Positions 28,401 through 31,400 of a DNA stretch of 64,000 nucleotides are shown piece by piece. Numbering within the stretch: position 1 is the first letter of the stretch; each line of letters starts with the position of its first letter. The DNA lies in NCBI RefSeq assembly GCF_048403405.1, contig NZ_CP183129.1. One strand, 5' to 3'. The stretch is from Escherichia coli (lineage in GTDB: Bacteria > Pseudomonadota > Gammaproteobacteria > Enterobacterales > Enterobacteriaceae). A program made the position numbers.

Positions 28401-31400
28401 TGGAGAGAACCATGCACAAATTTACTAAAGCCCTGGCAGCCATTGGTCTGGCAGCCGTTATGTCACAATCCGCTATGGCGGAGAACCTGAAGCTCGGTTT
28501 CCTGGTGAAGCAACCGGAAGAGCCGTGGTTCCAGACCGAATGGAAGTTTGCCGATAAAGCTGGGAAGGATTTAGGGTTTGAAGTTATTAAGATTGCCGTG
28601 CCGGATGGCGAAAAAACATTGAACGCGATCGACAGCCTGGCTGCCAGTGGCGCAAAAGGTTTCGTTATTTGTACTCCGGACCCGAAACTCGGCTCTGCCA
28701 TCGTGGCGAAAGCGCGTGGCTACGATATGAAAGTCATTGCCGTGGATGACCAGTTTGTTAACGCCAAAGGCAAGCCAATGGATACCGTTCCGCTGGTGAT
28801 GATGGCAGCGACCAAAATTGGCGAACGTCAGGGCCAGGAACTGTATAAAGAGATGCAGAAACGTGGCTGGGATGTCAAAGAAAGCGCGGTGATGGCGATT
28901 ACCGCCAACGAACTGGATACGGCTCGTCGCCGTACTACGGGGTCTATGGATGCGCTGAAAGCTGCAGGATTCCCGGAAAAACAAATTTATCAGGTACCTA
29001 CCAAATCTAACGACATCCCGGGGGCATTTGACGCTGCCAACTCAATGCTGGTTCAACATCCGGAAGTTAAACATTGGCTGATCGTCGGTATGAACGACAG
29101 CACCGTACTTGGCGGCGTACGCGCGACGGAAGGTCAGGGCTTTAAAGCGGCCGATATCATCGGTATCGGTATTAACGGTGTGGATGCGGTGAGCGAACTG
29201 TCTAAGGCACAGGCAACCGGCTTCTACGGTTCCCTGCTGCCAAGCCCGGACGTACATGGCTATAAATCCAGCGAAATGCTTTACAACTGGGTAGCAAAAG
29301 ACGTTGAACCGCCAAAATTTACCGAAGTTACCGACGTGGTATTGATCACGCGTGACAACTTTAAAGAAGAACTGGAGAAAAAAGGTTTAGGCGGTAAGTA
29401 ATTTGCCGGAAAAATTCCCCTCTGCATGATGCAGAGGGGGTGTGAACGACCAGTGATTCACGGAGACGTTATGCAACAGTCTACCCCGTATCTCTCATTT
29501 CGCGGCATCGGTAAAACGTTTCCCGGCGTTAAGGCGCTGACGGATATTAGTTTTGATTGCTATGCCGGTCAGGTTCATGCGTTGATGGGTGAAAATGGCG
29601 CAGGAAAATCAACTCTCTTAAAAATCCTCAGCGGCAACTATGCGCCAACCACGGGTTCTGTAGTGATTAATGGGCAGGAAATGTCCTTTTCCGACACGAC
29701 CGCAGCACTTAACGCGGGTGTGGCGATTATTTACCAGGAACTGCATCTCGTGCCGGAAATGACCGTCGCGGAAAACATCTATCTCGGCCAGCTGCCGCAT
29801 AAAGGCGGCATTGTGAATCGCTCATTGCTGAATTATGAGGCGGGTTTACAACTTAAACATCTTGGTATGGATATTAACCCGGACACGCCGCTGAAATATC
29901 TCTCCATTGGTCAGTGGCAGATGGTTGAAATCGCCAAAGCGCTGGCGCGTAACGCCAAAATTATCGCCTTTGATGAGCCAACCAGCTCCCTCTCTGCCCG
30001 TGAAATCGACAATCTTTTCCGCGTTATTCGTGAACTGCGAAAAGAGGGGCGGGTGATCTTATACGTTTCTCACCGTATGGAAGAAATATTTGCCCTCAGC
30101 GATGCCATCACCGTCTTTAAAGATGGGCGTTATGTCAAAACCTTTACTGATATGCAGCAGGTTGACCACGACGCCCTGGTGCAGGCGATGGTCGGGCGCG
30201 ACATCGGTGATATCTACGGCTGGCAACCGCGTAGTTATGGCGAGGAGCGCCTGCGTCTTGATGCTGTGAAAGCACCAGGCGTGCGTACGCCAATAAGTCT
30301 GGCGGTTCGCAGTGGAGAAATTGTCGGTCTGTTTGGTCTGGTCGGGGCAGGGCGTAGCGAATTAATGAAAGGCATGTTTGGCGGTACGCAAATTACCGCC
30401 GGTCAGGTTTATATCGACCAACAGCCGATCGATATTCGTAAACCGAGCCACGCCATTGCCGCAGGCATGATGCTCTGCCCGGAAGATCGCAAAGCCGAAG
30501 GCATTATTCCTGTGCACTCCGTTCGCGACAATATCAACATCAGTGCCAGACGTAAACATGTGCTCGGCGGTTGTGTAATCAACAACGGTTGGGAAGAAAA
30601 CAATGCCGATCACCACATTCGTTCGCTCAACATCAAAACGCCGGGCGCGGAGCAACTGATCATGAATCTCTCAGGCGGAAATCAGCAAAAAGCCATTCTG
30701 GGCCGCTGGTTATCGGAAGAGATGAAGGTCATTTTGCTGGATGAACCTACGCGCGGCATTGATGTTGGCGCTAAGCACGAAATATATAACGTAATTTATG
30801 CGCTGGCGGCGCAGGGTGTGGCGGTGCTGTTTGCCTCCAGCGACTTACCTGAAGTCCTCGGCGTTGCCGACCGGATTGTGGTGATGCGGGAAGGTGAAAT
30901 CGCCGGTGAATTGTTACACGAGCAGGCAGATGAGCGTCAGGCACTGAGCCTTGCGATGCCTAAAGTCAGCCAGGCTGTTGCCTGAGTAAGGAGAGTATGA
31001 TGTCTTCTGTTTCTACATCGGGGTCTGGCGCACCTAAGTCGTCATTCAGCTTCGGGCGTATCTGGGATCAGTACGGCATGCTGGTGGTGTTTGCGGTGCT
31101 CTTTATCGCCTGTGCCATTTTTGTCCCAAATTTTGCCACCTTCATTAATATGAAAGGGTTGGGCCTGGCAATTTCCATGTCGGGGATGGTGGCTTGTGGC
31201 ATGTTGTTCTGCCTTGCTTCCGGTGACTTTGACCTTTCTGTCGCCTCCGTAATTGCCTGTGCGGGTGTCACCACGGCGGTGGTTATCAACCTGACTGAAA
31301 GCCTGTGGATTGGCGTGGCAGCGGGTTTGTTGCTGGGTGTTCTCTGTGGCCTGGTCAATGGCTTTGTTATCGCCAAACTGAAAATAAATGCTCTGATCAC

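Follow-up and report, generated by a model that had tools for sequence, protein, structure and literature searches.

The REP element located between malE and malF stabilizes malE relative to malFG; this was shown experimentally, and the mechanism is that of a barrier to exonucleases (Newbury et al. 1987, summarised in PMC5927463). The malEFG operon resembles araFGH in that a periplasmic binding-protein gene comes first, genes for membrane components come next, and the element lies directly after the binding-protein gene. Furthermore, the malE-malF REP and the araF-araG hairpin described here are alike in being stable sense-strand stem-loops without a U-tract, and REP elements sit in the araF-araG slot of several Citrobacter species. 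Unlike the malE-malF REP, the araF-araG hairpin is a 25-nt stem-loop which occurs once per genome, lacks the REP consensus and does not belong to the dispersed REP/BIME elements.

Intercistronic "mRNA decay terminator" hairpins in the puf operon of Rhodobacter capsulatus were reportedly described by Chen, Belasco and Cohen in 1988, and their function is said to have been shown by deletion. Like the araF-araG gap, puf contains a unique, non-repetitive intercistronic stem-loop; that of puf is reported to stop decay in the 3'-to-5' direction and to determine the proportions of the products made from one promoter. It differs from araF-araG in organism and pathway, in having two larger hairpins and in the functional proof by deletion. 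Intrinsic terminators share with the araF-araG hairpin a high GC content, a typical size of 10-11 bp and a loop of 3-5 nt; in contrast to them, the araF-araG hairpin has no U-tract on the sense strand and is located inside an operon whose downstream genes need to be expressed.

The araFGH operon itself was reportedly sequenced and its transcripts mapped by Scripture et al. in 1987 (J Mol Biol 197:37-46) and by Horazdovsky and Hogg in 1987 (J Mol Biol 197:27). These authors are said to have noted a dyad symmetry in the araF-araG spacer, and the latter work is said to contain an abundant araF-only transcript. Our literature search found no paper discussing the araF-araG gap, and araFGH has no entry in the tables of Dar and Sorek (PMC5927463 supplements). 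Here, we have analyzed this gap in Escherichia coli, within a window comprising the whole stretch of 64,000 nucleotides under study, and compared it with orthologous and paralogous operons.

Results

Organization of the araFGH locus

The window represents E. coli chromosome; 5417 of 5426 complete E. coli genomes contain a match to its stretch from 28300 to 31000, with araF, araG and araH annotated there. The first gene of the operon, araF (28412..29401, + strand; RefSeq mapping from L001 and ORF table), encodes the periplasmic L-arabinose-binding protein, is 100% identical to E. coli genomes and ends with the stop codon TAA at 29399-29401. It is followed on the same strand by araG, coding for the ATP-binding subunit (29471..30985; ORF table and RefSeq mapping), and by araH, coding for the permease (31000..31986; RefSeq mapping). 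With the ATG of araG at 29471, the intercistronic gap between araF and araG comprises 69 nt (29402-29470), which is the length that an earlier note on this DNA had given. The identical 69-nt sequence is present in E. coli K-12 MG1655, where it carries no annotation.

The gap begins with an unpaired A-rich spacer, UUUGCCGGAAAAAU (29402..29415, + strand), which extends from the araF stop codon to the base of a stem. An RNA stem-loop occupies 29416..29440 (+ strand), and the remaining segment, 29441..29470 (+ strand), contains a further spacer and the translation-initiation region of araG with the Shine-Dalgarno sequence GGAG at 29462-29465, 5 nt before the ATG. The Shine-Dalgarno sequence is thus outside the hairpin; CACGGAGACGTTATG is nearly invariant across genera in the alignments A1 and A3 introduced below. 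The gap between araG and araH is 14 nt long (GTAAGGAGAGTATG) and unstructured (0 kcal/mol). Downstream of araH, at 32024..32051 on the + strand, a terminator scan detected a terminator-like hairpin with a T-rich tail, which contrasts with the internal hairpin and is probably the end of the araFGH operon.

An in-frame start of araG located further upstream was considered and rejected. The ATG codons at 29426 and 29429, which lie in the loop and would give an ORF of 519 aa, are not preceded by a Shine-Dalgarno sequence, and both RefSeq and the K-12 annotation place the start at 29471. Additionally, the frame is lost in other Escherichia, where the gap of 70 nt (L003, L004) is 1 nt off.

The inverted repeat and its predicted fold

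A repeat finder reported a single inverted repeat in the region 29300-29600. Its arms, CCCCTCTGCAT (29417-29427) and ATGCAGAGGGG (29429-29439), are 100% complementary and separated by the single spacer base G29428. A perfect 11-bp inverted repeat had previously been claimed for 29411-29445; the arms account for 29417-29439, and the wider span consists of margins only. Since RNA cannot close a 1-nt loop, the predicted RNA hairpin is composed of 10 Watson-Crick pairs and a closing U29416·G29440 pair around the 3-nt loop UGA (29427-29429).

The araF-araG hairpin is not a chance feature. The folding free energy, proposed as a check in the earlier note, was predicted to be -19.8 kcal/mol for the 35-nt span as compared to a mean of -7.7 for shuffled sequences (z = -5.1), and none of 200 shuffles was as stable. 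Both the minimum free energy (MFE) structure and the centroid of a 261-nt context kept the hairpin. Furthermore, seven perfect inverted repeats with arms of 11 bp or more and no more than 10 nt between the arms occur in the 64-kb window, as compared to 0.17 on average over 30 dinucleotide-preserving shuffles. The MFE structure of the whole gap also contains a second, weak stem in contact with the Shine-Dalgarno region; this stem is missing from the centroid and is not conserved.

The sequence following the stem on the sense (+) strand, GTGTGAAC, contains 2 T in the first 8 nt and no T-tract, and the terminator scan did not call the hairpin in this orientation. The absence of a trailing T-tract, as stated earlier, is therefore true of the + strand; on the - strand, the same stem runs into AATTTTTCC with a run of five T, is terminator-like by the scan and has a nearly equal predicted energy of -19.7 kcal/mol. 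For this stem, the mark of a Rho-independent terminator, a GC-rich hairpin followed by a U-tract, was found on the - strand only. A canonical Rho-independent terminator on the + strand was rejected on account of the tail with its 2 T in 8 nt and of the tails of the orthologues described in the following section.

Conservation of the hairpin in Enterobacteriaceae

Species-representative genomes were scanned for AraG, which yielded 80 loci, and the araF-araG gap was extracted from each of them. The genera covered include Escherichia, Citrobacter, Enterobacter, Klebsiella, Kosakonia, Kluyvera, Leclercia, Lelliottia, Atlantibacter and others. A strong hairpin was present in 82 of 82 araF-araG gaps from about 80 species of Enterobacteriaceae; none of the hairpins was weaker than -17.9 kcal/mol, and their mean was -22.9 kcal/mol. 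Control windows (200 coding windows of 70 nt taken from the same loci) had a mean of -13.2 kcal/mol with a standard deviation of 3.4, and 18.5% of them reached -16.

The dimensions of the hairpin were determined for the 72 distinct gaps that do not contain REP elements. The uninterrupted stem has a median length of 10 bp and a maximum of 15 bp, and the loop has a median of 5 nt with a range from 3 to 18 nt. The stem starts at a median of 14 nt past the araF stop codon (14-15 nt in 42 of the 72 gaps), and between 15 and 45 nt, depending on the species, separate it from the ATG of araG. Apparently, the element is tied to the end of araF and not to the start of araG. Among the 72 gaps, 49 different 5' arms were counted; the hairpin is maintained by position and strength while its sequence turns over.

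At most 3 T were found in the 8 nt past the stem in 68 of the 72 distinct orthologous hairpins, and four gaps reach 4 T. The sole two gaps resembling canonical terminators are those of Atlantibacter L077 and L078, in which the stem is followed by TTTTGG or TTTGG. The stem length bears on another class of hairpins: an RNase III site needs double-stranded RNA of about 20 bp, or about two helical turns, and a role as RNase III processing hairpin was rejected for a stem of 10-11 bp in E. coli with orthologues that do not exceed the above maximum. Covariance models of Rfam 15 gave no match at E ≤ 1 on either strand of the region 28000-32500.

In E. coli, the gap is a single-copy sequence with a median of one place per genome (5416 genomes), and it is identical in 4772 of these 5416. 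The variant C29421T (one sampled strain, 107) results in a U·G wobble on the sense strand. Other Escherichia species retain a 9-bp core, CCCCTCTGC/GCAGAGGGG, and vary in the loop; hence, the perfect 11-bp symmetry is a detail of E. coli laid over a conserved 9-bp stem. The A-tract (A5) upstream of the stem is confined to Escherichia and a few Citrobacter species, and the hairpin is general.

Covariation and the working strand

All 72 sequences were aligned across genera using MAFFT (alignment A1). RNAalifold returned no consensus structure for A1, which we attribute to a one-column register shift between clades and not to an absent structure. A second MAFFT alignment, A3, was made from a subgroup of 34 sequences with the conserved flanks TGATTG... 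and ...CCAGACGT, and structure was not used in the fitting. The nine-pair helix was found paired in 96.7% of the cells of A3 as compared to 38-62% when the 3' partners were slid by 1-3 columns. Both sides had changed in six of the nine pairs, for example from C-G to U-A and from A-U to G-C. The number of double-change cells was 40 as compared to 11.9 in shuffles, a value that 0 of 500 shuffles reached, and the covariation score was 0.389 as compared to 0.199 in shuffles. The hairpin is under selection for pairing.

A flank-anchored count agreed with the picture obtained from A3. Pairs 1-9 contained 11 cells of the G·U type and none of the A·C type, and this asymmetry indicates that the sense-strand RNA is the selected form. 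The working form of the element is sense-strand RNA.

REP elements and paralogous operons

In the Citrobacter loci L006-L008 and L010-L012, and also in L056, the gap is occupied by REP/BIME-like palindromes (GCCGGATG...CTTATCCGGCCTAC) instead of the simple hairpin. The E. coli element was itself considered as a member of the REP/BIME class and rejected, having no such consensus, a single copy in the 5416 genomes and no repeat annotation in K-12. Additionally, we have examined four paralogous operons for sugar ABC transporters in E. coli K-12, all of which start with the binding-protein gene, namely xylFGH, mglBAC, alsBAC and ytfQRT. One GC-rich hairpin each was found in xylF-xylG and mglB-mglA, and REP elements were found in alsB-alsA and ytfQ-ytfR. 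The gaps between the genes for ATPase and permease (araG-araH, mglA-mglC, ytfR-ytfT) are 10-15 nt long and without structure.

The operons xylFGH and mglBAC belong to the same transporter family as araFGH and have the same gene order. Their first gaps, with 60-77 nt, resemble that of araF-araG in containing one GC-rich hairpin of 9-10 bp a short distance behind the stop codon, and the gap that follows within the operon is likewise short and unstructured; they differ in unrelated stem sequences and in tails which are somewhat more T-rich. REP elements substitute for the hairpin in orthologues as well as in paralogues. A stable RNA structure right behind the binding-protein gene, present also in the paralogues, is hence the general design of this transporter family.

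Discussion

The kept hairpin with its covariation, the wobble pairs on the sense strand, the low number of T after the stem and the presence of REP in the same slot together support the interpretation of the araF-araG hairpin as a putative intra-operon RNA stability element rather than a terminator, as far as can be judged from the sequences. The earlier note had described it as a processing or stability element and not a terminator. The comparative tests agree with a stability element and not with a terminator; processing by cleavage is not upheld, the stem being too short for RNase III.

With moderate confidence we propose that the hairpin is an intercistronic barrier to 3'-to-5' exonucleases which stabilizes the araF segment of the araFGH mRNA. 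Its features are those of a protective stem-loop: the stem lies within the annotated araFGH operon, 15 nt downstream of the stop codon of araF, and the sense RNA has a stable and selected fold (-19.8 kcal/mol, with compensatory changes in 6 of 9 pairs). The spacer of 14 nt between stop codon and stem corresponds approximately to the stretch covered by a terminating ribosome 3' of the stop codon; hence, the hairpin could stay folded during translation of araF.

The barrier mechanism and its effect on protein stoichiometry, as we infer them, would be as follows. An endonuclease would cleave the full-length araFGH transcript at some point within araG or araH, and PNPase and RNase II would degrade the RNA 3'-to-5' back to the hairpin and stall there. 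The downstream segment containing araG would decay faster, the araF-only mRNA would outlast the araGH portion, and the binding protein would be produced in excess over the membrane transporter from a single promoter.

Polarity within the operon might also originate from synthesis and not from decay, namely if the hairpin were a partial, non-canonical terminator or a pause site that halts some RNA polymerases past araF, with fewer transcripts reaching araGH. In favor of this role are the GC-rich hairpin in a gap that is not translated, the canonical-like tails of the two Atlantibacter gaps and the moderately T-rich tails of the hairpins at mglB-mglA and xylF-xylG. We nevertheless consider it unlikely, because U accounts for only 2 of 8 nt in the E. 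coli tail GUGUGAAC, nearly all orthologues (68 of 72) have at most 3 T, and the terminator scan made no call for the + orientation. Moreover, the replacement found in Citrobacter consists of REP elements, which, to our knowledge, are not known to terminate transcription efficiently. Termination may contribute in at least one lineage, Atlantibacter with its T-run after the stem. An effect on translation has, in our view, little probability. Here, the hairpin would tune araG translation or uncouple araF from araG by limiting re-initiation or standby binding, which would lower AraG and leave the mRNA levels unaffected. Its distances of 31 nt to the ATG and 21 nt to the Shine-Dalgarno sequence, and the second stem that touches the Shine-Dalgarno region, are in line with such an effect, but the conserved hairpin includes neither the Shine-Dalgarno sequence nor the start codon, the second stem is weak, not conserved and missing from the centroid, and the distance between stem and ATG ranges from 15 to 45 nt whereas that to the stop codon is tight.

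RNase E might also cut in the A/U-rich spacer, leaving the hairpin as a 5' stabilizer of a processed araGH mRNA in the manner of papBA. Protective structures at 5' ends have been described (PMC5927463), and AA|AUU at 29412-29416, directly 5' of the stem, fits the loose RNase E consensus RN|WUU. We regard this as very unlikely, since such an arrangement would favor the transporter genes over the binding protein and so invert the stoichiometry to be expected of a binding-protein-dependent ABC importer; a match to the motif should turn up by chance about every 64 nt, and the A-tract is limited to Escherichia and a few species of Citrobacter, in contrast to the hairpin, which occurs generally. The same RNase E match also counts against a decay barrier, because a cut at this site, if used, would separate araF from the hairpin. 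The equally good antisense fold followed by the T5 run was likewise counted against a decay barrier. It would fit an intrinsic terminator acting on antisense RNA initiated within araG and keeping this RNA out of araF: on the - strand, the stem is followed by AAUUUUUCC, and the scan called a hairpin of 10 pairs with the tail AATTTTTCCG and a fold of -19.7 kcal/mol. We give this explanation a very small chance, given that the 11 G·U-type cells as compared to no A·C-type cells favor the + strand, that the E. coli variant C29421T is an A·C mismatch on the - strand, that the A5 tract is confined to the Escherichia clade, and that no convincing promoter was found on the - strand, where three promoter-like sites stand against 6.2 expected. 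Finally, the perfect palindrome with its 1-bp center has a geometry typical of operators and might function as DNA, either as a binding site for a dimeric protein or as a cruciform. This is extremely improbable, as the sequence differs between genera while pairing is kept (49 arms, compensatory changes), cells of the G·U type would break the symmetry of the DNA, and the loops range from 3 to 18 nt.

Returning to a sense-strand barrier that protects araF, we find it quite improbable that the hairpin is bifunctional in Escherichia, combining this role with that of an antisense terminator made by the A5 tract, and likewise, as a separate matter, that REP elements were recruited into pre-existing stabilizer slots. 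The element is an ordinary case of a textbook mechanism in a well-studied operon and in this respect already known; it opens no new question, but may be of use in teaching or for deriving rules of operon design in synthetic biology. The repeated replacement of an ancestral unique hairpin by REP/BIME, in Citrobacter as well as in alsBAC and ytfQRT, could represent a natural swap experiment. The comparative data provide a clean example of a small mRNA element which is conserved in structure and position, turns over in sequence and is interchangeable with REP. With its hairpin, araFGH fits the standard design of binding-protein-dependent ABC importers, in which an RNA structure between cistrons allows one promoter to supply the binding protein in large excess over the membrane transporter.

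The araF-araG hairpin and its loop

In its minus-strand orientation (29405-29439), the hairpin between araF and araG is followed by AATTTTTCC and was scored as an intrinsic-terminator-like site. Comparison of the orthologous gaps revealed that the A5/T5 tract beside the hairpin occurs only in Escherichia and in a small number of Citrobacter species. The hairpin loop contains two ATG codons (29426-29431) which share the frame of araG and would extend its open reading frame to 519 amino acids, as compared to the annotated 504. No Shine-Dalgarno sequence was found for these codons, and their frame with araG is not kept in other Escherichia; therefore, they are probably not a real start of araG.

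Variation of the intercistronic gap

In a number of Citrobacter species (loci L006-L008 and L010-L012) and in a single Enterobacteriaceae isolate (L056), one to three REP/BIME-like elements, a class of dispersed extragenic palindromes, replace the simple hairpin. These gaps comprise 104-115 nt in all six loci from Citrobacter, as compared to 259 nt in L056. This replacement represents a natural swap of one proposed stabilizer type for another. The Atlantibacter gaps (L077, L078) carry a hairpin GGCGAGCGC...GCGCTCGCC followed by a T-run inside the operon, an arrangement resembling a canonical intrinsic terminator; it may reflect a lineage-specific move towards attenuation by termination.

Two of the compared loci deserve separate mention. 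At the locus of E. coli ECSC054 (L085, NZ_AP024112.1, 2290878-2291138), unrelated sequence ending in CCCCCAGCCTAGCTGGGGGTTTTCTGTGCAC takes the place of both the araF 3' end and the initial 8 nt of the gap, and directly joins AAAAATT and the hairpin; furthermore, araF is not annotated there. An insertion or rearrangement breakpoint immediately 5' of the hairpin is therefore likely. Locus L073 derives from CACSKA010000001.1, a contig titled Chryseobacterium sp. 18061; it contains an Enterobacteriaceae-type araG with 87% identity to E. coli and an araF-araG gap almost identical to the one in Citrobacter sp. 18056 (L060), which belongs to the same project. These findings suggest that the assembly is mislabelled or contaminated.

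Other inverted repeats in the window

The inverted-repeat search also identified a perfect 12-bp palindrome, AGCCAATTTGTC-A-GACAAATTGGCT (28172-28196, plus strand), within the ftnB-araF regulatory region, where it precedes the araF ATG by 216 nt. It is followed by TTTCC and adjoined by ATGGATTAATCTGCT, which is similar to an AraC half-site. Among four other Escherichia species, only the centre of the palindrome, ATTTGTCAGACAA, is conserved; its outer arms vary, unlike the neighboring promoter sequences, which are invariant.

Five further perfect inverted repeats of 11 bp or longer were present in the 64-kb window, located at 4802-4826, 23594-23625, 25957-25989, 26668-26693, and 51192-51223. 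The latter two, flanked by A6...T6 and A4...T4, respectively, look like bidirectional terminators.

Paralogous sugar ABC operons

The four paralogous operons of E. coli K-12, namely xylFGH, mglBAC, alsBAC, and ytfQRT (L086-L089), were comparatively analyzed. All four harbor a strong hairpin or a REP element between the binding-protein and ATPase genes, and the gaps between their later genes comprise just 10-15 nt and are unstructured. Thus, a structured gap after the binding-protein gene combined with short later gaps is the general architecture of these paralogous operons.
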